From Lachnospiraceae bacterium (GTDB lineage: Bacteria; Bacillota; Clostridia; Lachnospirales; Lachnospiraceae): a stretch of 64,000 bases of DNA. The translations under genes were made by a program, and so were the position numbers. The stretch lies in NCBI GenBank assembly GCA_017625255.1, contig JAGALK010000145.1:2463-66462 (forward strand), in the 5' to 3' direction. The notes below the pieces were generated by a model. It was given only the letters and a program-made list of their open reading frames with translations. It searched no databases and had not been told where the DNA came from. Below are positions 4,917 through 56,297 of this stretch, in pieces (the first letter of the stretch is position 1; each line of letters begins with the position of its first letter).

Positions 4917-5108
4917 TTACTGTGCCTGCTTTTCGCACCACCCATCGGATAAGTCGTATAAGTGGAAGTGTGAAGCTGTGCTGTATTCTGCAACTGCCTC
5001 TTCTTCCATTTCTTCTGCACAGTACCACATATTGATTGCGTCCTGTGCCAAGACACCGATAACTACCGCAAAAACAGTTGTTACGAGCATAAATCCCACA
5101 AATTCCAT
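4917..5108 (-). CDS. small membrane protein (63 aa)
   Basis: ATG 5108 with SD aaggagg; N-terminal hydrophobic helix FVGFMLVTTVFAVVIGVLA; first gene after cassette C. Confidence 0.55.
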   Translation of the reverse strand: MEFVGFMLVTTVFAVVIGVLAQDAINMWYCAEEMEEEAVAEYSTASHFHLYDLSDGWCEKQAQ

Positions 5109-5587: not shown

Positions 5588-6859
5588 TTATACGGCTTCT
5601 TCTACTGCACATTCCTTGATTTCAATTTTCTTCAAGGAAACGGGTTCATCAAGTTTCTTCTTCGGTGCGATTTTGTAATTACGCACTTCCTTGATTACCC
5701 CGCCGGCTTTTTGTGCCTTCTTATTCTCTTTGACAATTTCTTTTGTAATCTTGTCATACAAGGCTTTGTCAAATTTCTCTACAAGACACTGTTTATAAAG
5801 GTCCGGCTGTTCGGCTTTAAGCCGTTCTTCATCGAAACCTGTGCGGGTTTCTTTGTATTTCAATGAAATAGCCACATACTTTTCATCATCAAGACGGTAA
5901 GTAGCGTATTCCGTTCCCGCTTCGGCAAAAGAGAGAATAGCGTTTACCAAAGCATATTCCTCGGCTTCGATTGTTTCCAATGCCTTTTCTGCCTTTTCCT
6001 TCCTTGCGGTCAACTCTGTTGCCTTCTCAATCAGTTCGTAAATTTCGTAACTGTCGGGAAGTTCCACCGCAGGGGCGTTTTCAGCAGGTTCGCCGTAAAG
6101 TCTTGTGTAATATTCCGCAAGCATCTTCTCGCTTTTTACACAAGGTTCGGGTTCCTTGCCTTCGTAGCAACATTCAATGAAATCTGCTACCGAAGACATC
6201 ATCTGCTGTTCAATATCCATATCTCTGCGGATAAGGATAATTGCGTTTTCTGCCTTTGTAAAGCCCCAGCTACAAGTGAGATATACGAACTCCACATTGG
6301 CAATCGCCATATAGTACCGACACTGGTACTCGTAGGATTTCGGCGGTATGCCTAATTTCCAATTTTTAATGTCGCTGTAAGAACTTGTAGTTTTACATTC
6401 CACCAAGCCTTCAACGCCGTTTACTTTAACTCTGCGGTCAAAGTTACCGAGGGCGAAAGGGTAGTGAGGGTGCTGATACATTGTGGTATCGTTCCATATT
6501 TCAATATCCTTCACGCCCTCGTCCTCTTTCATTTTACGGACGAACATATTTGCCACAAATTCTTCCAATTCGTGACCTGCTCTTAAAGCCTCTTCGTTCA
6601 TCGGCTTTTCTACCGCAGTTTTTAATCCGGTCTTCTGGTGGAAGAGTTCAAGGTTGGTCTTAAATTTCGACACTCCAAGAATTACTCCCACATCGGAACC
6701 GCCTGCGGTGTACTCAATGTACTCCGGGTGCGTCGGATCGTCGTAATGAGGACCGTGCTTTCTGCACCCTAACCATTCGGGGCTTCCGTCCACATATTTG
6801 CCTAATGCGATAGGCTTGTAGTTGGTGTTGATAGTTCCTGCGTTTGATACTTTACTCAT
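5588..6859 (-). CDS. YqaJ/lambda-exonuclease-like PD-(D/E)XK recombination exonuclease with ~150-aa C-terminal coiled-coil extension
   Basis: Trimmed to ATG 6859 (SD aaaggagg). Contains GGSDVGVILG and FDRRV...GLVECKTT (D...ExK), as in YqaJ viral recombinase family nucleases. First gene after cassette D. Confidence 0.7.
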   Translation of the reverse strand: MSKVSNAGTINTNYKPIALGKYVDGSPEWLGCRKHGPHYDDPTHPEYIEYTAGGSDVGVILGVSKFKTNLELFHQKTGLKTAVEKPMNEEALRAGHELEEFVANMFVRKMKEDEGVKDIEIWNDTTMYQHPHYPFALGNFDRRVKVNGVEGLVECKTTSSYSDIKNWKLGIPPKSYEYQCRYYMAIANVEFVYLTCSWGFTKAENAIILIRRDMDIEQQMMSSVADFIECCYEGKEPEPCVKSEKMLAEYYTRLYGEPAENAPAVELPDSYEIYELIEKATELTARKEKAEKALETIEAEEYALVNAILSFAEAGTEYATYRLDDEKYVAISLKYKETRTGFDEERLKAEQPDLYKQCLVEKFDKALYDKITKEIVKENKKAQKAGGVIKEVRNYKIAPKKKLDEPVSLKKIEIKECAVEEAV

Positions 6860-42437: not shown

Positions 42438-42842
42438 ATGCGAATACTTTTAAAAGAGCCGGGCAAGCCCGTTGAAATAAAAGAAACTTCTGAACGATAT
42501 ATATCTGATGCTGGACGCTTGTATATCCCCAACGGAGATATAAGGCATTTTATATTATATGGTTCTGTTTGTTTTCTTTTTGACGACGAAGCCTGCTTTA
42601 AAGATTTAGAAAGAAACTTCATTTTGTTCAACCCCCGCCTTATTATTCCCGTACAGGAAATCAGAGGTACCGTTGTGGGTTGCAAATTAAAGCCCATAAA
42701 TCCGTTTGAAGAAATATGGGATTATGAAGTAGATGAATTATCTGATGAAGATATAGAAAATGTTTCGGAAATCTTTTCGATTGAAGATGAAGAAAAGCTG
42801 GAAGAATACATTAAAAAGATTATGAAGGAGATGAATAAATGA
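42438..42842 (+). CDS. hypothetical protein (134 aa)
   Basis: ATG 42438 with SD aaaggag; consensus promoter 42380-42408. Confidence 0.55.
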   Translation: MRILLKEPGKPVEIKETSERYISDAGRLYIPNGDIRHFILYGSVCFLFDDEACFKDLERNFILFNPRLIIPVQEIRGTVVGCKLKPINPFEEIWDYEVDELSDEDIENVSEIFSIEDEEKLEEYIKKIMKEMNK

Positions 42843-43159
42843 AATATGCCCGTATCAATGTGAAGTGCAATTACGAGTTGATTAAGGAAATCAACAGTAT
42901 TTTGCCGTCCTATACCGGACGCATCTATATTAAAGACTTTTTTTCCGAATTAGTTGCTAATGCAAACAAGGTAATGAATTATGCGGAAAGCAAAAACGAT
43001 GAAGATAAGGAAATCGGTACCGAGTTTTACATCATGTGTCCTTTGTCCGTTTATAAGGAAGCAAGAAGTATTATGTGTAAGGTTCCCAAAGATTATTCCG
43101 AACTGTATTTGTTGTTAGAACATATCGCAAAGCTGGACGAAAACAGTTTTGTTTCGTAG
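42839..43159 (+). CDS. hypothetical protein (106 aa)
   Basis: ATGA start/stop overlap with the previous gene. Confidence 0.55.
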   Translation: MKYARINVKCNYELIKEINSILPSYTGRIYIKDFFSELVANANKVMNYAESKNDEDKEIGTEFYIMCPLSVYKEARSIMCKVPKDYSELYLLLEHIAKLDENSFVS

Positions 43160-43171
43160 AAAGGATTATTT

Positions 43172-43564
43172 ATGCGTTTTGTTGATGAAGAAGCTAAACG
43201 GTATTTGGCGAATGTCCGGTCAGCACGGTTAGAGGAACTGATCGAGGAAACCGATGAACTGGATAAAGAAGACCGTAGTGATTTAGAAGTGCTGTATGAT
43301 GAAGTAAATTATCTTGTTGGGCTTTATCTGGAAGACGGCACAGTGCCAAGAGATGAATACTTGGAAGCAAAGAAAATTGTCCGTAAAACGGAAAACGGTA
43401 AAGTAATGCCCCTAAATCCAATTTCCCTAAAACCTCGCTATTCCGAACAGCAGGTTGAAGACGCAAAAGAATTAGTAAACGAAGTGCGTCGATTAAAAAG
43501 ATTAAGTGATACTTTATGTATTAAAATATATTGTGATTGTGAGGAAGATACCGATGAAGGATAA
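43172..43564 (+). CDS. hypothetical protein (130 aa)
   Basis: ATG 43172 with SD aaagga. Confidence 0.55.
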   Translation: MRFVDEEAKRYLANVRSARLEELIEETDELDKEDRSDLEVLYDEVNYLVGLYLEDGTVPRDEYLEAKKIVRKTENGKVMPLNPISLKPRYSEQQVEDAKELVNEVRRLKRLSDTLCIKIYCDCEEDTDEG

Positions 43565-43928
43565 ATATAAATTAGTGAAAGACCTTGAATTTCCTATGGT
43601 AGACTGGGATATGTACGCTTACAACCGTTTGGATTATTGTAGCGGGAAATGGTTTAATAAATGGTTCGTAGTAGCTGGCACCAATGGAAATCAAGAAATT
43701 TCCGGGGAAATGCAGGCATTTAGTGATTTTATGACCGATGTGGTTCTCCCCGGCGGGCATCACGATATTCCCAAGCTGGTAGAAAAATTGTCTTTGGAAG
43801 ATAAAGATATAGACGGAAATCACGATTATATTGTATTTTGTGAAGGCGAAAATGTTAATATTAAGATTTTGCTTACGGATCGTGAGAAAGATTACCACCT
43901 GCGGATATTCTTTTATCCGAAAAGATAA
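43554..43928 (+). CDS. hypothetical protein (124 aa)
   Basis: Trimmed to ATG 43554 (SD gaggaag); 11-nt overlap with the previous gene; bidirectional terminator follows. Confidence 0.5.
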   Translation: MKDKYKLVKDLEFPMVDWDMYAYNRLDYCSGKWFNKWFVVAGTNGNQEISGEMQAFSDFMTDVVLPGGHHDIPKLVEKLSLEDKDIDGNHDYIVFCEGENVNIKILLTDREKDYHLRIFFYPKR

Positions 43929-43947
43929 GAAATGTTTTTGTTTTAAA

Positions 43948-43994
43948 TAAAAAAACCTTCTGCATTGCCCGTCGGCTTTGCAAAAGGTTTTTTC
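43948..43994. terminator. bidirectional terminator between convergent genes
   Basis: AACCTTCTGCA...TGCAAAAGGTT stem with A-run and T-run flanks. Confidence 0.6.
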
Positions 43995-44395
43995 TAATTT
44001 ATGTATTTTATCTCTACTTTGGAGTGGTCGCCGTTTACAGCTTCGAGAGCCTTTTTGTAACTGCGATATAATTCTCCTTCTGCGAGATATATCACTTCTG
44101 CTTTCACACAAGGAGTTCCCCAGAGGTAGTTCCCGTCTTTTTCTATCTTTAATTCAAGCCCATAGGCTTTATAGTCAGACGGTGTGGTTTCCTCTTTTAC
44201 ATTCCACTCCCAACTCATTTTTCCTTCCTCTGCTCTGGCATATTTGCCGTCTTCGGATACTACATATTCAAGACCGACGGCTTCTTCTACCTGTACTTTC
44301 AATTCGGCAATCGCCTCTTCGATTGTGTCGCAGATTTTTTCGTAAATTTCACGAACTGTTCCTTTTATTGTTAATTTTAATTCAACTTTTGCCAT
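43994..44395 (-). CDS. hypothetical protein (133 aa)
   Basis: ATG 44395 behind hairpin-SD element T2. Confidence 0.55.
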   Translation of the reverse strand: MAKVELKLTIKGTVREIYEKICDTIEEAIAELKVQVEEAVGLEYVVSEDGKYARAEEGKMSWEWNVKEETTPSDYKAYGLELKIEKDGNYLWGTPCVKAEVIYLAEGELYRSYKKALEAVNGDHSKVEIKYIN

Positions 44396-44446
44396 TTTAT
44401 TTTACCTTTGCCGTACCACGACGGGTACGGCTTCCTTTCTTTTTTT
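44396..44446 (-). promoter_or_regulatory. hairpin-SD element T2
   Basis: GAAAAAAAGAAAGGAAG-CCGUACC CGUCGU GGUACGG-CAAAGGUAAAAUAAA-AUG; hairpin 44430-44411. Operon-internal (no promoter nearby). Confidence 0.5.
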
Positions 44447-44453
44447 CTTTTTT

Positions 44454-45125
44454 TTACTCACCTAACATTTCCGAAAGAAGTCTTGCTTTTTCTTTCGCTT
44501 CTTCAATATCCGCTTTGGCACGGTTTTTAAGGAGATTTTCGACTTCGGAACGGTTATCGTTGTAGGTGTAGACTTTGTAGTAATATTCCTTATCGTGGTT
44601 GGAATAATACAGGTTTACGACATCAATTTCGTCTATACGACAGACGATTTCTTCTTTACTACCGTATTCCCATTCCCACTCTGCGTCAACTTCTTCAACG
44701 ACACTTTCCCATTCAATGATTTTTCTGCCGTCGCAGATTACAGGGTAAGACCACGCAGAAATATGTCCTTTTGTTAAAGTGTAGGTATAGAGGGTTTTTA
44801 CTTCCCGCATTATCTCGCAGTCAGAGATGTACCAGTGGTACTCTACACCGTTTTTTCCTTTTTTGTCCCAGTCCACCCACTTAACTTCTGCGTAATCTTC
44901 GTCAATTTTGCAGGAATAGGTAGAACCATAGGTTTTGTAATCTTCGACATCTTCTCCGATTGCGATCTTAATATCTTCGGGACCGTCAAGACCTAACAGG
45001 TCCATAATGGATTTCTCCATATCCCTTTTCGCATCTTCCATTGTAGGGTATACTCTCACATAATCCTTTATAGACGCTTTCCCCTTGCCGAGTTCTGTGG
45101 TTTTTAAAATAGTTGCATATCTCAT
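44454..45125 (-). CDS. hypothetical protein (223 aa)
   Basis: ATG 45125 behind hairpin-SD element T3 and a ~390-nt structured leader. Confidence 0.55.
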   Translation of the reverse strand: MRYATILKTTELGKGKASIKDYVRVYPTMEDAKRDMEKSIMDLLGLDGPEDIKIAIGEDVEDYKTYGSTYSCKIDEDYAEVKWVDWDKKGKNGVEYHWYISDCEIMREVKTLYTYTLTKGHISAWSYPVICDGRKIIEWESVVEEVDAEWEWEYGSKEEIVCRIDEIDVVNLYYSNHDKEYYYKVYTYNDNRSEVENLLKNRAKADIEEAKEKARLLSEMLGE

Positions 45126-45175
45126 AGTTTTTTACCTTACCGTCCTATTGTCGGGACGGTTCCTTTCTTTTTTTT
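45126..45175 (-). promoter_or_regulatory. hairpin-SD element T3
   Basis: AAAAAAAAGAAAGGAA-CCGUCC CGACAAUA GGACGG-UAAGGUAAAAAACU-AUG; hairpin 45159-45140. Confidence 0.5.
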
Positions 45176-45183
45176 GTATTCTT

Positions 45184-45236
45184 ACAAGCCTCCCCTACAC
45201 CTACTTACTAGGTTCGGTGCTTGCTATTTAATTGTA
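45184..45236 (-). other. conserved leader RNA motif, copy 1 (UAGCAAGCACCGAACC-variable hairpin-GGUGUAGGGGAGGCUUGU)
   Basis: The 16-nt and 18-nt arms are identical to copy 2. The variable centre can form ACCUA/UAGGU here. Confidence 0.4.
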
Positions 45237-45404
45237 GAAGGAACCGCTTGATACTACCCGTCGGCGTTTACCAATGGTTCCTTCTTTATAATAATCTATG
45301 TTCTATTTAGGTTACACAAAGGCACTTGAAGGAGGCACTTTGCCTCAACTTCGTCTGTGCGGTGTAACCGTCCCTGCATCTCTAATGTGTAGAAATGCAG
45401 GGCA

Positions 45405-45532
45405 ACAACAAAACCAAAAAAGAGAAGTCACTTTTACGGAATATCCCCGTAAAGTTCTTCTCTCTATTGTTAGCATATTTTGTTGTTTTTATTTAATAAG
45501 TATAATATACACTATTATTTTTATGATTGCAA
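45405..45532 (-). promoter_or_regulatory. promoter-leader cassette G (diverged stem)
   Basis: -35 TTGCAA 45532-45527, 17 bp, -10 TATATT 45509-45504. The longer leader hairpin 45463-45421 has a different sequence but the same position, followed by U6. Confidence 0.55.
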
Positions 45533-45645
45533 GAGATGTGGATAAAAAAGTATAATTTTATATTATAAAATAATTTTCAAAGTAAATGCACAAATCTTTG
45601 CATTTACTCTGAAAAATACTACAAGCACAGTTTTTTGGTGCCAAT

Positions 45646-45674
45646 AAAAAAGGGCGTACATAATGTACGCCCTT
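45646..45674 (-). terminator. intrinsic terminator after the GNAT gene
   Basis: AGGGCGUACA UUA UGUACGCCCU plus U6. Confidence 0.7.
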
Positions 45675-45681
45675 TGACATC

Positions 45682-46242
45682 TTACAATTTCTGCCACATA
45701 AATACGCAACCTTTATCATAGGCAGGTTTTATATGACTATATACAAATCTTCTCATTTTTTCAGAGGTATGAACAAACCCCATTGTTTCATAATGAGCCA
45801 TAAGTTTATCTTTCGGTAGAGAGAAAATGTATAAATATGATGCACCTACATATTCCGCAATTTCCAATGTTAACGGTAAAATAAATTGATAAAAAACATA
45901 CGAGCCTAAATGGGCTACCATATTATTTACTTTTCTGTAATTATCATTTACCGCAAAATTTGCCAATTCAATACCGGTATAAGCATCAAATCCTTTCAAT
46001 AATCCTCTACTAACGGTTATCAAACCAGACCTCAAAGTAAAGTATGCAACAATCTGTTTTGTTCTTATATCTTTTATCAGATATGTCCTTGACATTTTAA
46101 TTTCTTCGTCAAGTAAAGCATACTTCTTTAAATATACTTCTAAACCGTACCCTTTTTCAGCTGAAAAATCAGACAAATCTTCATTTTTAGTTAAATGGAC
46201 AATTTCAAAAAATTCATCGTTTAAATCACTTAAATTTATCAT
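45682..46242 (-). CDS. GNAT-family acetyltransferase, TacT/KacT-like toxin candidate
   Basis: 186 aa; IVAYFTL...IELANFAVNDNYR...GSYVFYQFI...ASYLYIFSL...HYETMGF is colinear with the GNAT acetyl-CoA fold. ATGA overlap with a small upstream ORF, as in type II TA pairs. Confidence 0.6.
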   Translation of the reverse strand: MINLSDLNDEFFEIVHLTKNEDLSDFSAEKGYGLEVYLKKYALLDEEIKMSRTYLIKDIRTKQIVAYFTLRSGLITVSRGLLKGFDAYTGIELANFAVNDNYRKVNNMVAHLGSYVFYQFILPLTLEIAEYVGASYLYIFSLPKDKLMAHYETMGFVHTSEKMRRFVYSHIKPAYDKGCVFMWQKL

Positions 46243-46403
46243 ACTTTTTCTTTTGAGTACATCATTCTTATATACTCAATAAATTCTTCTGCTTCTTTTT
46301 TTAAAGCTGTACGATCCGGTCTTTGTGTTGAAAGCAACATATCATTTATGCGATTTGCTTTTTTTCTACTAGCATATCTTCCTTTAAAGGGCTTTATTTT
46401 CAT
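46239..46403 (-). CDS. small protein (54 aa), candidate antitoxin partner of the GNAT gene
   Basis: Trimmed to ATG 46403 (SD ggaggtg). 4-nt overlap with the GNAT ORF. No DUF1778/RHH motif could be verified by eye. Confidence 0.45.
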   Translation of the reverse strand: MKIKPFKGRYASRKKANRINDMLLSTQRPDRTALKKEAEEFIEYIRMMYSKEKV

Positions 46404-46463
46404 ATAAATACTCACCTCCAATGTACTCTTCCTCCTTTCCTCGTTAATATTATCTATATTAAA

Positions 46464-46515
46464 CGGGGAAAATTATATAGAATATCCCCGATTGTTTTCT
46501 TTTCGGGAATATCCC
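46464..46515 (-). promoter_or_regulatory. operator-like repeats in the GNAT operon leader
   Basis: Direct repeat GAATATCCC at 46480 and 46507 (plus strand), and imperfect inverted repeat CGGGGAAAAT...GAATATCCCCG at 46464-46490. Confidence 0.35.
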
Positions 46516-46542
46516 ATATTTAGTTTCTCTTTCTTTAATATT

Positions 46543-46570
46543 ATTATATCACTTTATTTATTGTTTACAA
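46543..46570 (-). promoter_or_regulatory. promoter of the small-ORF/GNAT operon
   Basis: TTGTAA 46570-46565, 16 bp, TGaTATAAT (-10 at 46548-46543). Confidence 0.5.
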
Positions 46571-46661
46571 GTTTTTGACAAAAAATATATCTTACCAGTT
46601 CTTCAAACTCCATTTCCTCGACAGTAGCAATGTCTTGCTTTTGAGTATCGGTACCGCACAT
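46554..46661 (-). CDS. possible 35-aa peptide
   Basis: ATG 46661 directly behind a double-hairpin variant of the hairpin-SD element (T7); MCGTDTQKQDIATVEEMEFEELVRYIFCQKLVNNK. Confidence 0.25.
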   Translation of the reverse strand: MCGTDTQKQDIATVEEMEFEELVRYIFCQKLVNNK

Positions 46662-46726
46662 AATTTTACCTCTGCACCAAATAAGTGCAGTCCCCGCCTC
46701 GCCGGACGGGGAACCTTTCTTTTTTT
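46662..46726 (-). promoter_or_regulatory. hairpin-SD element T7 (double-hairpin variant)
   Basis: AAAAAAAGAAAGGUU-CCCCG...CGGGG-A-CUGCAC...GUGCAG-AGGUAAAAUU-AUG; hairpins 46712-46691 and 46690-46672. Confidence 0.4.
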
Positions 46727-46740
46727 AGTTATGTTGTGAT

Positions 46741-46773
46741 AAAGAAAGAGCATCTATTGATGCCCTTTCTTTT
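46741..46773 (-). terminator. possible terminator
   Basis: 14-bp stem AAAGAAAGGGCAUC/GAUGCUCUUUCUUU. The U-rich tail is part of the stem. Confidence 0.35.
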
Positions 46774-46774
46774 G

Positions 46775-47353
46775 TTACAGCCGGGAACCCAATAAAAGGT
46801 TCACCATTTCCCTATTTTCTTCCATTTTTTCTTCAATATGAAGAAGTCTGGAAGACTTTACCCCTTCCTCCACAAAAGGATTTTCGCCCAGCGTTTCCGC
46901 TATTTCATGGGCGATTAACGAAAGCCCTACTTTCTTTATAAATTCCACGGGGCTTTCGTTAAGGAGTTCTTCTTCGTTGCAGAAGTACACAATGTCGCCG
47001 TACACATCTGCACAAATTTCGGAATATTCATCAGTTACTACTCTGATATATCCCGTAAGTAAAGCATTGTATACTTCTACTTCATAACGATATTTTTCTG
47101 CCAGTTCTTTTGTGATTTCGCAATCTACACCACTAATTTCGCATAACTCCTTTTCTACGGCTAAATCAACTGCAATCTTTCTGATCGAAATTTCCTGCAA
47201 ATTATCTTCACCGTAAAGTCCGTCCTCGAAGTGAACAAAATATTTACCATTTTCCTTATTGCGATAATAGTAAATGTTATCGTTCCACTCCTCTCCTCTT
47301 TTTTTGTAAGTGCGTTTGCAAGACGCAATTATTTCATAGTTTTCTTTGCTCAT
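46775..47353 (-). CDS. hypothetical protein (192 aa)
   Basis: Trimmed to ATG 47353 (SD aagggagg); first gene after cassette H. Confidence 0.55.
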   Translation of the reverse strand: MSKENYEIIASCKRTYKKRGEEWNDNIYYYRNKENGKYFVHFEDGLYGEDNLQEISIRKIAVDLAVEKELCEISGVDCEITKELAEKYRYEVEVYNALLTGYIRVVTDEYSEICADVYGDIVYFCNEEELLNESPVEFIKKVGLSLIAHEIAETLGENPFVEEGVKSSRLLHIEEKMEENREMVNLLLGSRL

Positions 47354-47383
47354 GTGAGCCTCCCTTCTGCCATTTTTGGCTTG

Positions 47384-47535
47384 CGACAATAAAAAAAGGA
47401 AGTACCCCTTGCGGAGTTCTTCCTATTGTTAGTCTTTTTTTGTCGTCAAGATTTTGTTACAAGGTTATTGTAATACACTTTGCAGGAAATTTCAAGATAA
47501 AAAAAGAGAGTGACCGTAGCCACTCCCTTTCTTAA
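47384..47535 (-). promoter_or_regulatory. terminator-promoter-leader cassette H
   Basis: Terminator 47535-47500. -35 TTGAAA 47495-47490, 17 bp, -10 TACAAT 47472-47467. Leader hairpin 47423-47398 plus U7. Mini-hairpin 47380-47369. Nearly identical to cassette E. Confidence 0.65.
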
Positions 47536-47540
47536 TATAA

Positions 47541-47684
47541 TTAGCCTTCCTCACGGGTGTAGTGCTTTTTATAATCATCTTTACTCCACCAATACTCATT
47601 TCCATTTTCATCATAGAAATATTTGGTTTTGTCAGACTTCAAAGCCTCTTCTCTCTCCCGCTGTTCTTGCGTATCTATCTGCAT
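47541..47684 (-). CDS. possible 47-aa protein
   Basis: ATG 47684 with SD taggaggtg; MQIDTQEQREREEALKSDKTKYFYDENGNEYWWSKDDYKKHYTREEG. Below the track cut-off. Confidence 0.35.
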   Translation of the reverse strand: MQIDTQEQREREEALKSDKTKYFYDENGNEYWWSKDDYKKHYTREEG

Positions 47685-47693
47685 ACGCACCTC

Positions 47694-48101
47694 CTACTCT
47701 GGAATTTCTACGAAACGGTAGCCTTCGTTAAATTTCACGATTACCACCTTATGTTCGTTTTCCTTGATTTCATCGTAGCTTTCCAACAGATAATTCCATA
47801 AACCCCTGCTGTCTGCTACTCTTTCATCAAATTCTGCCATTGTAATATCGTCCTCAATCTTCGGACGAAGACCGGGAGTGAAACGACTTGCGTAAATACT
47901 GGGACTAAAAATCTGTTCCGACGCAATAACATCTCCCTTTTTTACTTCAATTAAATTTCCACTTTCTACGCCTTGATAAATGTATTCATCAAATGCGTCA
48001 CAGTAATCTGATTTGATTTCCCACGGGAAATTATTAAAACCGTTTCTTAATTCGTCTTCTGATGCCACGGTATTTTCCTTCGTTACAACATAGTTTGCCA
48101 T
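47694..48101 (-). CDS. hypothetical protein (135 aa)
   Basis: ATG 48101 behind hairpin-SD element T4. Confidence 0.55.
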   Translation of the reverse strand: MANYVVTKENTVASEDELRNGFNNFPWEIKSDYCDAFDEYIYQGVESGNLIEVKKGDVIASEQIFSPSIYASRFTPGLRPKIEDDITMAEFDERVADSRGLWNYLLESYDEIKENEHKVVIVKFNEGYRFVEIPE

Positions 48102-48154
48102 ATTTCTTTACCTTTGCCGTACCAGTTACGGTACGGCTTCCTTTCCTTATTTTT
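48102..48154 (-). promoter_or_regulatory. hairpin-SD element T4
   Basis: AAUAAGGAAAGGAAG-CCGUACC GUAACU GGUACGG-CAAAGGUAAAGAAAU-AUG; hairpin 48136-48117; operon-internal. Confidence 0.5.
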
Positions 48155-48400
48155 TTATGCTGATTTTTTGGAAGTTTTATAATCTACAAAGTATTCATCA
48201 CTGTCTACATACTCTCCATTAAGAGTAACAACGCAAAATACTACCGCATCACTACTTCCGGTATTAAGTTCGGATCCTGCTTTTTTCACAAGTTCCGAGA
48301 TATTCATTGATTTCGCTTCATCAAGGGTGTGAGCATATACCTTAAAGGTTCTGCTTTTTTCCACTTCCAAGAAGTATACTTCTGCTTCCAGTAAATACAT
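48155..48400 (-). CDS. hypothetical protein (81 aa)
   Basis: Trimmed to ATG 48400 (SD aaggggg). Confidence 0.5.
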   Translation of the reverse strand: MYLLEAEVYFLEVEKSRTFKVYAHTLDEAKSMNISELVKKAGSELNTGSSDAVVFCVVTLNGEYVDSDEYFVDYKTSKKSA

Positions 48401-50790: not shown

Positions 50791-51759
50791 TTACGCTACC
50801 TTTGCCAACGCCCATACACCGTATGATACATTGACGAACTTATCGCTCTGTTGAAGGATTTGTCGTACCTTTGCTTTCCATTCAGAATTTGTTTCACATT
50901 TTTTGTGACCTTCTATTTCTGAATATATTTCTTCCAGTGGTGCATCGTGACCTATCTTCTGCATTACTGCATAAACCACATCTCTCCAAGTTGCACTCTT
51001 ACTATCTCTGATGTCAATTTCGTGCTTTGTAGGCAGTGAAAAATCAATCAGATAGGGTGCAATCTTTTTGAGTACCATAAGGTATTCGTGTTCGATAGGT
51101 ACGAAATTCCTACTTCCGTATGAGATATTCTCTCTGCCGGACACAGTATTGTGCTGTAATTTAATAATTACCTGCTCTAACTGTCCGGGTTTGACAATAT
51201 CAGCAAACATACTCTTAAAGCCAATGGGTTTTCTTCGCACATCGCCCATTAAAATACTCATTTTACCGCCATTCATCATAGCGGAATAGTATTTCATTAC
51301 GATAGCGTTTAAGGTAGACATGAACTGGTCCCAGTCCATATTCCCTAAATCTGCTTTGCGAAGTTCTCCCGTAGGATCAGAGTAATTTTTCCCAGCCCAA
51401 CTAATATTACAAATATTGCTGTAAGGCGGGTGCATAAAGAGCATATCTGCGTCCATAAACGCTTCGGGAACCTCGTCTGTAATTGCATTTACATTCAAGA
51501 TGCCCGGACGCACGGGATTAGGATTTAAGTCGGCACCGACATAGGATATACCCATATCTTTGCAGACATCATATCCGGTACCACTTCCGCTGAATAATTC
51601 TGCCATTTTCTCAACACGGTATTTCCATATCAAGAACGCATGAACCCAGCCGGAACAGTTCCCACGATACTGTGAGTTTCCCCACTCTCCTCGGTTTGGA
51701 AATGATAAAACCGTACTATCGTGTTTCATCAACTCCATTTCAATTTCTTTACGGTTCAT
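50791..51759 (-). CDS. DNA (N6-adenine or N4-cytosine) methyltransferase-like protein with C-terminal winged-helix (HARE-HTH/Mrr_N-like) tail
   Basis: Motif I ELFSGSGTG precedes an atypical motif IV FMHPPY. C-terminal ...IYSEIEGH...KAKVRQILQQSDKFVNVSYGVWAL. First gene after cassette I. Confidence 0.55.
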   Translation of the reverse strand: MNRKEIEMELMKHDSTVLSFPNRGEWGNSQYRGNCSGWVHAFLIWKYRVEKMAELFSGSGTGYDVCKDMGISYVGADLNPNPVRPGILNVNAITDEVPEAFMDADMLFMHPPYSNICNISWAGKNYSDPTGELRKADLGNMDWDQFMSTLNAIVMKYYSAMMNGGKMSILMGDVRRKPIGFKSMFADIVKPGQLEQVIIKLQHNTVSGRENISYGSRNFVPIEHEYLMVLKKIAPYLIDFSLPTKHEIDIRDSKSATWRDVVYAVMQKIGHDAPLEEIYSEIEGHKKCETNSEWKAKVRQILQQSDKFVNVSYGVWALAKVA

Positions 51760-51782
51760 AAGTGAACCTCCTTTCTTTTTTT

Positions 51783-54812: not shown

Positions 54813-55130
54813 TTACAGTCCGGCAACCGCAGGTTCAAGCGGTGTTGTCAGCTGACAAAACTGTAAAGGCACATAGCCTTCGGTTCCGTCGCTGGTCCGG
54901 ACGATTGCATATTTATCTTCTACTGTTTCCAGTAAAAGGAATGTGGTATTGATACCACTAATTTCCCCTATGGGTTCTGCGGAAAAATCGGTACTGTCCC
55001 ACACGGGACAATAACCCGGAGAGTATCTTATATCCGCTTCTTCTGCGAAGGTCGCCGAAATACTACCCAGCATCGGCACTACTGCGAGTGCTAATACTAA
55101 TGTCAATACCAACATTTTAATTTTACCCAT
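54813..55130 (-). CDS. secreted small protein with SH3b-like C-terminal half (105 aa)
   Basis: Signal peptide KMLVLTLVLALAVVPMLGSISATFA; KYAIVRTSDGTEGYVPL resembles bacterial SH3_3 domains. Lies behind element T5. Confidence 0.5.
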   Translation of the reverse strand: MGKIKMLVLTLVLALAVVPMLGSISATFAEEADIRYSPGYCPVWDSTDFSAEPIGEISGINTTFLLLETVEDKYAIVRTSDGTEGYVPLQFCQLTTPLEPAVAGL

Positions 55131-55180
55131 TGTTCCTTACCTTTGCCGTACTCTTCTTTTGTGGCACGGCTCCTTTCTTA
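55131..55180 (-). promoter_or_regulatory. hairpin-SD element T5
   Basis: UUAAGAAAGGAG-CCGUGC...GUACGG-CAAAGGUAAGGAACA-AUG; hairpin 55169-55146. Confidence 0.45.
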
Positions 55181-55204: not shown

Positions 55205-55251
55205 ACAAGCCTCCCCTACACCATCGTTTTTTACGGGTTCGGTGCTTGCTA
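55205..55251 (-). other. conserved leader RNA motif, copy 2
   Basis: Same arms as copy 1, with a different central hairpin (CGU...ACG). Lies between the cassette J hairpin and element T5. Confidence 0.4.
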
Positions 55252-55675: not shown

Positions 55676-56248
55676 CTAGCGTATGAACTGAAAAATATTC
55701 ATTTGTTTCCATTCAGCCCATTCCTCTTCTTTAATTTCTTTTGCAGGTTCAATTTCTCTTACCCACTGACCTTCTTCGTCAGCCTGTAATCTGAAACCCA
55801 CAATATTAAATGGTAGTCCCGTGATACCGTTTAGTTTTCCCCACGGTCTTACCTTTATTGTTACTTCCAATATGGAAGTCTGTGTTACGGTGTTGTTTCG
55901 GGTGTCGTAAAATTCCCCCAGTATCACACCGCAATCAATGCTCTCCGAAAACTTATCGCCTTCATCGAGCATCACTGATTGCTTCGCAATTCGCTTTAAG
56001 TTATAAGCATCGCCAAAAAACTCCTGCAAAGCAATTTTCACTTCCGTAAAAGAATAAAACGAATACCGTTCTTTCGGTTTTCTTTCATTCAGTTCTTTTA
56101 CGGTGTACTCACAGCCGATATGCTTCTTACTTAACGCAAAACTCATTTGCTTATCAAGCAGTCCCGGAGTGAGTTTTTTTGTTGCATCGGATATTTGTTG
56201 ATATGCCACATCAATTAAATCCGATACATCTGCTAATCTCCTTTCCAT
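55676..56248 (-). CDS. hypothetical protein (190 aa)
   Basis: ATG 56248 behind element T6 and cassette K. Confidence 0.55.
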   Translation of the reverse strand: MERRLADVSDLIDVAYQQISDATKKLTPGLLDKQMSFALSKKHIGCEYTVKELNERKPKERYSFYSFTEVKIALQEFFGDAYNLKRIAKQSVMLDEGDKFSESIDCGVILGEFYDTRNNTVTQTSILEVTIKVRPWGKLNGITGLPFNIVGFRLQADEEGQWVREIEPAKEIKEEEWAEWKQMNIFQFIR

Positions 56249-56297
56249 AGTAATTACCTTTGCCGGACCACGACGGGTACGGCTCCTTTCTTTTTTT
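56249..56297 (-). promoter_or_regulatory. hairpin-SD element T6
   Basis: AAAAAAAGAAAGGAG-CCGUACC CGUCGU GGUCCGG-CAAAGGUAAUUACU-AUG; hairpin 56282-56263. Confidence 0.5.

Follow-up and report, generated by a model that had tools for sequence, protein, structure and literature searches.

What is a GC-rich hairpin doing between two Shine-Dalgarno (SD)-like boxes just ahead of a start codon, and why should the same arrangement recur at several genes of one replicon? The question is raised by a 64,000-nucleotide stretch of DNA from a Lachnospiraceae bacterium (contig JAGALK010000145.1; the whole stretch is termed the window in what follows), and within it by the leader at 44393–44446 on the minus strand, which precedes a 133-aa orphan gene (43994–44395). 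Genes of the window lie nearly all on the minus strand, its GC content is 36.5%, and its start sites carry Firmicute-style SDs, AAAGGAGG placed 6–10 nt 5′ of ATG. We find that the hairpin is selected as sense-strand RNA, and we tentatively propose that the leader is a cassette for mRNA processing and 5′ stabilisation.

The hairpin and its two flanking boxes

Read on the coding strand, the focal copy, termed T2, opens with an A-run (AAAAAAA, 44440–44446) that ends at an invariant G, where cleavage is predicted to fall between A7G and AAAGGA. There follow an upstream box complementary to the 16S rRNA 3′ tail, resembling a stabilising SD (STAB-SD) and ~40 nt from AUG (GAAAGGAA, 44432–44439); a hairpin with an 8-bp stem and 6-nt loop, identified by folds and covariation (GCCGUACC-CGUCGU-GGUACGGC, 44410–44431); and a weak proximal SD (AAAGGUAA, 44402–44409) whose AGGU lies 8 nt from AUG. 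The copy folds at −15 kcal/mol (z −4.09) and scores 77.6 bits against a covariance model described below.

A sequence-only reading of the window had reported seven such sites, T1 to T7, and each was found where it had placed them, on the minus (coding) strand. All share one order, spanning ~50 nt: A-run, GAAAGGA(A/G/AG), GC-rich hairpin, (C/G/T)A(A/G)AGGTAA, 4–8 nt, ATG. The stems and loops are also as it described them, with a shared CCGUACC-type stem, CCGUCC/GGACGG at T3 and two unrelated hairpins at T7. Two of its figures need amending: the distance from AGGU to AUG, given as a constant ~8 nt, is 6–8 nt (8 nt holds for T2), and the count of seven is right for the window, the replicon total being at least 10 with three more copies just outside it (L009; sequences beyond the window are cited by such numbers). 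Chance does not produce this repeat: the pattern GAAAGGA-N0-3-CCG-N10-20-CGG-N-ARAGGTAA has five matches against 0.00 expected from 100 dinucleotide shuffles, and the T hairpins, set against whatever folds at −42 to −12 of any open reading frame (ORF) start in the window, are among the most stable. The unit has sharp edges, copies being unrelated 5′ of the A-run and 3′ of about codon 2. Cassettes occur between cistrons (T1, T2, T4; those of T2 and T4 begin no more than 7 nt past the upstream stop codon), directly after terminators (T6 and L009 12711) and after long leaders (T3, T5), three differing contexts that tie them to the start codon and not to promoters. A promoter within the cassette was itself rejected; the one −10-like element, TAAAAT, occurs in T2 only, 3 nt from ATG, and is not conserved.

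That the RNA of the sense strand is the conserved form follows from the diverged copies, where G·U pairs and compensatory changes hold the fold on that strand and the antisense fold is absent. In the orthologue of T6 in L024, GCUGUGCU/GGUACGGC with three G·U pairs, the sense strand folds at −11.0 kcal/mol and the antisense at −1.8 (z ~0); in the L007 orthologue of T1 the values are −7.7 and −2.9 kcal/mol (antisense z again ~0). On the sense strand, folds have z-scores between −3.0 and −4.1. When 12 distinct copies are aligned, 91.7% of stem cells are paired, with two-sided changes in three pairs: C-G to U-A (L009 21520), A-U to C-G (T3) and, at the stem base, G-C to A-U. The alignment has a covariation score of 0.252; shuffles give 0.176, two of 500 reach the observed score, and all slid controls score lower. 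G·U cells outnumber A·C cells 8:4 on the sense strand, two of the four A·C cells coming from a single inverted copy. Loops vary freely among copies, that of L002 being exactly inverted (ACGACG vs CGUCGU), and at T3, T5 and T7 the same slot is filled by different hairpins. The RNA-level role claimed by the sequence-only reading is thus backed by G·U pairs, compensatory changes and unrelated hairpins in one slot; the check it had named, a motif search in relatives followed by a covariation test, found pairing kept in the diverged copies and a score above 498 of the 500 shuffles.

The boxes on either side differ in strength. The upstream box AAGAAAGGAAG forms an anti-SD duplex of −10.3 kcal/mol, which bears out its earlier description as anti-SD-complementary; the proximal box gives −4.0 as AAAGGU (the T2 form) and −7.5 as GAGAGGU. 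Both are predicted single-stranded in local folds. The proximal box had been taken for the working SD, and so it is, its AAAGG standing at the normal register. The further idea that the two boxes are halves of one extended SD agrees with hairpin-less leaders of the same genome, which read AAAAAAAGAAAGGAGGT + 6 nt + ATG (also rendered AAAAAAAGAAAGGAGGU and AGAAAGGAGGU). One of these, at 51757–51782 (minus strand), is the paralogous leader of a DNA methylase gene (50791–51759), has the undivided form AAAAAAAAGAAAGGAGGTTCACTT-ATG, and recurs as AAAAAAAAGAAAGGAGGUUCACUU-AUG at L009 16356; the canonical AAGAAAGGAGGU of the undivided leader pairs at −17.2 kcal/mol. From these sequences the cassette reads as an undivided SD leader with a hairpin set between GAAAGGA and GGU.

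A natural variant in which the roles of the boxes could be separated occurs at L010 5761–5818, in a recombinant SSB-CobT region of a strain with an identical ATPase. Compared with L009 12711–12766, this CobT leader retains the hairpin, lacks the A-run, and combines a degenerate upstream box, UAUAAGGAA, with a strong GGAGGU as its proximal SD.

Alleles and paralogues portray the hairpin as a separable module. At the T6 site it is present in three of four lineages (the window, L024/L025 and L027), and in the fourth a metagenome-assembled genome (MAG) has AAAAGAAAGGUAAGGUAAGAUU-AUG, where both boxes remain and the hairpin does not. The MAG state is most simply a loss, to judge from these sequences, because L024, which has the hairpin, has the most divergent Rep. 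A transposon-like insertion with AAAGG as target duplication is ruled out, as the hairpin-less allele of the relative retains both boxes. L002 matches the sequence preceding T3 (360 nt at 93% identity) and at exactly GAAAGGA switches to the inverse of a T1/T2-type hairpin and to a different gene; in the MAG (L026) the T4 cassette and its gene have been swapped for another gene, with the breakpoint within ~25 nt of the cassette. The T4 leader is identical over 51 nt to that of a DUF7768 gene (L009 18599–18654) and the T1 leader over 45 nt to that of CobT (L009 12711), and in L006 the ATPase and CobT genes carry different hairpin types. This pattern points to gene conversion, and not selection on sequence, as the source of much of the stem sequence conservation. 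Short-homology recombination or gene conversion would spread the cassette from leader to leader and keep its copies alike; the cassette marks mosaic junctions.

Proposed processing and stabilisation, and competing readings

The reading we favour, which is tentative and drawn by analogy, makes the cassette both a determinant of RNase Y-type processing and a 5′ stabiliser, the latter comprising the hairpin and the STAB-SD-like box. RNase Y cuts after a purine, preferably G, ~6–7 nt 5′ of a duplex that must contain G-C pairs and whose loop does not matter, even if inverted, and its cut stabilises the downstream fragment (PMC5449607, PMC11321564). RNase J1 is blocked by 5′-proximal structures and by ribosomes on strong SDs (PMC5737220), and processed cry3A mRNA is stabilised by a STAB-SD (PMC12970973). 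The anatomy of the cassette, constant in all copies, corresponds at each of these points: an A-rich single strand ends in an invariant G, in a region predicted to be unpaired; 5–7 nt separate this G from the stem base across 17 copies; the stem has invariant G-C pairs, those at positions 2 and 4 scoring as invariant (CG/GC); the loop is free or inverted; and a box complementary to 16S rRNA lies in the 5′ untranslated region (UTR), too far from AUG to place the start.

The hairpin would then act as the downstream ruler duplex for an RNase Y-type endonuclease, which would cut the single-stranded A-rich tract after the invariant G, 5–7 nt 5′ of the stem. The new 5′ end, AAAGGA-hairpin-SD-AUG, would be shielded from 5′-to-3′ decay by RNase J through the 5′-proximal stem, a 30S subunit parked on the STAB-SD-like box, or both. 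The downstream cistron would thereby gain its own stable, translatable mRNA whatever lies upstream, be it a cistron, a leaky terminator or a long leader; a protected 5′ end for each gene would explain why cassettes are found alike between cistrons, after terminators and after long leaders.

Known STAB-SD or polypurine 5′ stabilisers include the leaders of phage SP82 and of Bacillus subtilis aprE, the latter with a stem-loop. Like those of B. thuringiensis cry3A and B. subtilis hbs, the cassette has in its 5′ UTR an SD-like GAAAGGA(G) too far away to initiate, beside a putative processed 5′ end, and as in the hbs leader this box is combined with a stem-loop (PMC12970973, PMC5737220). It differs from these in that the box is only ~40 nt from AUG and has a hairpin directly 3′ of it, looks like the 5′ part of the gene's own SD split off from the rest, and belongs to a multi-copy, modular unit. 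With the RNase Y sites of Staphylococcus aureus saePQRS and gapR and of B. subtilis cggR-gapA it shares a single-stranded purine- or A-rich segment with a G 5–7 nt before a G-C duplex, an irrelevant loop, an intercistronic position and an expected stabilised downstream cistron (PMC5449607, PMC11321564). Unlike those single chromosomal sites, this is a near-identical repeated cassette fused to the ribosome-binding site (RBS) of ~10 plasmid genes, and its cleavage is predicted.

Several points weigh against this proposal. The RNA structure and the anatomy are seen in the copies themselves, and cleavage and stabilisation are argued purely from analogy; the same anatomy is compatible with a purely translational role. 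The guide duplex of sae is 21–24 bp, against stems of 7–8 bp here, a size nearer the gapR/cggR hairpins. Stem position 4 tolerates the mismatches U·C, U·U and C·A. The hairpin has been lost at T6 in one lineage and another gene lacks it, making it dispensable at some sites. Finally, the independent observations behind the covariation test are few (12 sequences), because gene conversion (T4 = L009 18599; T1 = L009 12711) inflates the similarity of stems.

A translation-initiation device is the rival that best withstands the evidence, though we consider it unlikely. The 30S subunit would dock on the strong upstream box, as a standby site or discontinuous SD, and move to or co-pair with the weak proximal GGU/AAAGG, the folded hairpin holding both boxes single-stranded and close together. 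Much of the geometry suits this: the undivided paralogues show that each box corresponds to half of a single SD, by itself the proximal box is weak (−4.0 to −7.5 kcal/mol), both boxes are accessible, AGGU keeps its 6–8 nt from AUG, and in L010 the degenerate upstream box coincides with the strong proximal GGAGGU. The difficulty is that the upstream box, 38–41 nt from AUG in the linear sequence, is still ~19 nt away after folding and cannot itself position the start; the composite formed across the stem is an imperfect SD, with linkers of 1 and 3–4 nt left; and the hairpin-less relative keeps the boxes adjacent (GAAAGGUAAGGUAAG) and evidently still expresses its gene. A bolder form, in which the 16S 3′ tail pairs with both halves at once (AGAAAGGA 5′ of the stem, GGU 3′) in a three-way junction on the 30S platform, giving a discontinuous, structure-gated SD shared by a plasmid regulon, strikes us as very improbable; such a junction with the 16S tail is without precedent.

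In phage T4 genes 38 and 25, folding brings the only SD to its working distance of ~5–7 nt. The sequence-only reading had suggested a structure-assembled SD of this kind, and the likeness extends to a hairpin between an SD-like sequence and AUG. The geometry rules it out: here a second, correctly spaced SD exists, and after folding 15–17 unpaired nt and the width of the stem remain between the upstream box and AUG, which at ~19 nt is outside the working spacing of about 5–9 nt.

It is improbable, too, that the hairpin has no adaptive function, being a palindromic hitch-hiker copied by gene conversion or template switching, lost by slippage and tolerated since both boxes stay free. Its presence/absence polymorphism at T6, the inverted copy in L002, the homogenised paralogues, its position at mosaic breakpoints and its confinement to one narrow clade would all suit such an element. 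However, diverged copies stay paired, and only on the sense strand, by way of G·U and compensatory changes, the slot in T5 and T7 holds unrelated hairpins, the ATPase site keeps the element down to 73% aa identity, and no transposase-like partner is seen.

We regard as somewhat more doubtful again a translational operator, by which a plasmid- or host-encoded RNA-binding protein would recognise the hairpin and co-regulate ~10 cistrons post-transcriptionally. The stem (G)CCGUACC/GGUACGG(C) is common to most copies, the functionally paired ATPase and CobT/vWA-like genes have identical hairpins in this plasmid, and the hairpin adjoins the SD. Yet loops are free and even inverted, T3, T5, T7, L007 and L024 keep the structure and not the sequence, and a Pfam scan of 30 window proteins turned up no RNA-binding family. 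The gene-conversion origin of stem identity also weakens the case, accounting for identical copies, and the L006 pair carries different hairpins. Conserved structure, free or inverted loops and stems that drift with pairing kept favour a generic structural role, such as processing or stability, over a sequence-specific operator.

We give hardly any credence to an antisense intrinsic terminator, or the terminator of a cis-antisense RNA over the RBS. The plus strand does read as a GC hairpin followed by CUUCCUUUCUUUUUUU, a terminator scan of that strand lists T2, T3, T4 and T7, and perfectly palindromic stems fold equally on both strands. It is largely refuted by the strand-specific folds (antisense RNA of L024 and L007 is unfolded, and on that strand T1-type stems drop to −7.0 kcal/mol), together with L010, which retains the hairpin and loses the A-run that would be the antisense U-tract, and the absence of any promoter-like site (≥10/12 matches) within 260 nt antisense at any of 16 copies. 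Moreover, the plus-strand cluster has its own bidirectional terminator at ~43950–43994, and the conserved CC inside the supposed U-tract is left unexplained. The terminator look of the plus strand is a by-product of a GC hairpin placed after an A-rich SD leader.

Two other candidates were set aside. All T copies resemble the −1 frameshift signals of dnaX and insertion sequences, with A AAA AAG, a 6–7-nt spacer and a GC hairpin (e.g. 44432–44446), but the heptamer is outside any ORF, upstream ORFs ending before it (T1, T2, T4) or being absent (T3, T5, T6). A DNA operator for a dimeric protein is unlikely, several copies keeping structure and not sequence, and G·U being a mismatch in DNA.

Copies, replicon and neighbouring elements

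The remaining copies of the window are all on the minus strand. T1 (2387–2440) precedes a gene (548–2389) for an AAA+ ATPase of the AAA_5, CobS/MoxR-like type; its hairpin at 2405–2424, CCGUACC/GGUGCGG with loop CAGCGU, includes one G·U pair. T3 (45123–45175; hairpin 45139–45160, ACCGUCC/GGACGGU) lies before a 223-aa orphan gene (44454–45125), and T4 (48099–48154; hairpin 48116–48137, loop GUAACU) before a 135-aa orphan gene (47694–48101). T7 (46659–46726) has the same flanks around two unrelated hairpins (46692–46711 and 46672–46690) and is followed by a 35-codon ORF. T6 (56246–56297) directly follows the rep terminator and precedes a 190-aa gene (55676–56248); its hairpin (56262–56283, loop CGUCGU) has one U·C mismatch. 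T5 (55128–55180; hairpin 55145–55170, 11-nt loop) serves a 105-aa gene (54813–55130), previously labelled secreted and SH3b-like; that label is not confirmed, the product having no Pfam match at E ≤ 0.01, and only a signal-peptide-like N-terminus is seen. Apart from the ATPase, no product of a T gene had a match in the Pfam scan. The three copies outside the window precede genes for a CobT/vWA-like protein, a DUF7768 protein and a third product of at least 334 aa.

Besides the ATPase, Pfam recognises in the window NrdD, topoisomerase, RecD2-like and RecG-like helicases, a YqaJ recombinase and a Rep3 initiator. Identical ATPase and Rep proteins occur in a 110,639-bp Lachnospiraceae MAG contig. 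Because a TraG/VirD4-type coupling protein adjoins the same genes in close relatives, and PcfJ, DUF3854 and DUF5688 are found in remoter ones, the replicon is best read from its gene content as a ~110-kb Rep3-type, conjugative-plasmid-like element of gut Clostridia. Megablast against phage and plasmid collections gave no nucleotide-level match for it.

Beyond this replicon, carriers of the cassette number four or five close relatives and form a narrow clade: an Acutalibacteraceae MAG contig at 77–97% nucleotide identity (L002, L005, L026), Logan contigs L006–L008, and contigs L024, L025 and L027, whose Rep proteins are 71–76% identical. The ATPase orthologues of the Logan contigs, at 82, 74 and 73% aa identity, all keep the element, and in the L005/L026 orthologue of T5 the stem is retained around another loop. 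Trained on 12 copies and run over 303 kb, a covariance model recovered every known copy and nothing else convincing. Distant relatives (ATPase ~40%, methylase ~70% identity; the nearest deposited record, Bacteriophage sp. MT835545) have no cassette, their SDs and terminators being ordinary. A motif search of IMG/VR and JGI metagenomes gave no match, and no ATPase relatives were found in IMG/VR. Rfam gave no gathering-score match in the window and only chance-level ones at E ≤ 1 in 43900–48300. Pattern matches in L003 and L004 were dismissed as chance in GC-rich genomes. So, probably, is a 35-bit match in an Anaerocolumna sp. MAG contig (L001 5657–5712, GAAAGGAAGCCGUA-loop-UACGGCAGAGGUAAAC), which has a chromosomal-looking context and no ATG at cassette distance; it lies ~35 nt upstream of an S1-domain (YitL-like) gene and could be a distant cousin.

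Short repeated stem-loop regulatory cassettes beside small orphan genes, serving as recombination points for module shuffling, are known in T4-like phages as promoter early stem-loops (PeSLs) (PMC2839356, PMC4122927). Breakpoints are found at the T element as well (the L002 junction at GAAAGGA and the T4 replacement in L026, a small sample). Unlike a PeSL, which combines a sigma-70 promoter and a functional terminator, the T element has neither, with no −35/−10 motif in the cassette and no U-tract after the sense hairpin; it is a translation-start leader on a Firmicutes plasmid.

A closer PeSL analogue is a second repeat family of the window, with 9–10 copies on the minus strand, also present in L002 and L005. 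Each unit comprises a sigma-70-like promoter (TTGCAA, 17 nt, TGTAATATA), an A-rich leader of ~35 nt, GACGACAAAAAAAGACTAACAATA, and a terminator with hairpin GGAAGAACUCC-GYAR-GGGGUACUUCC and then U7GUUGUC; units begin ~75 nt upstream of the hairpin, and the SD of the next gene comes directly after. Hairpins are at 275–251, 2921–2895, 5181–5156, 6928–6903, 7586–7561, 24630–24604, 47423–47398, 51821–51797 and 55301–55275, with a variant at ~45350–45530. The layout suggests a small RNA, or else a leader that works by promoter-proximal attenuation or antitermination.

Other features adjoin particular cassettes. T3 is preceded by a non-coding leader of ~400 nt (45176–45650, minus strand), 93% identical in L002 and more alike there than the flanking genes are; it is possibly a functional RNA. 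A ~50-nt motif, AGCAAGCACCGAACC-N9-15-GGUGUAGGGGAGGCUUGU, lies 13–35 nt upstream of T3, T5 and their orthologues (45184–45235 and 55205–55250 on the minus strand; L002 ~5960–6005; L005 ~4960–5000). It is self-complementary (CAAGC/GCUUG, CACC/GGUG), could be a structured leader or protein-binding site, and has no match in Rfam. Between the T2 gene and a convergent plus-strand cluster (42438–43928) is a long A/U-flanked hairpin at 43950–43994, AAAAAAACCUUCUGCA...UGCAAAAGGUUUUUU, a bidirectional terminator of ~−24 kcal/mol for the region. At 45682–46421 (minus strand) a small ORF of 60 aa overlaps the 5′ end of an acetyltransferase-like gene of 186 aa (PHROG 1758); a strong extended −10 promoter (46570–46543) precedes both, and the layout resembles a GNAT toxin-antitoxin pair.

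Meaning for large gut plasmids

The functional class to which we would assign the cassette, a leader hairpin with an SD-like stabiliser and processing site, is known. What appear to be new are the fusion of these parts into a repeated, recombining cassette, the placing of the hairpin inside an SD, and its use at ~10 plasmid cistrons, with none in Rfam. A methodological point is that a terminator-like look on the non-coding strand can be the by-product of a hairpin after an A-rich SD leader.

If the processing and stabilising reading is true, the cassette would be a modular unit of processing site, 5′ stabiliser and RBS that the plasmid has pasted before selected, mostly orphan cistrons. It would parallel in nature the synthetic insulators, such as RiboJ and Csy4 sites, that free expression from upstream context, and would be a compact, sequence-defined candidate substrate for RNase Y from Clostridia, whose ~17 natural variants amount to a mutational series. 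It would also offer a handle on how expression levels are set in the long same-strand gene arrays of large gut plasmids.

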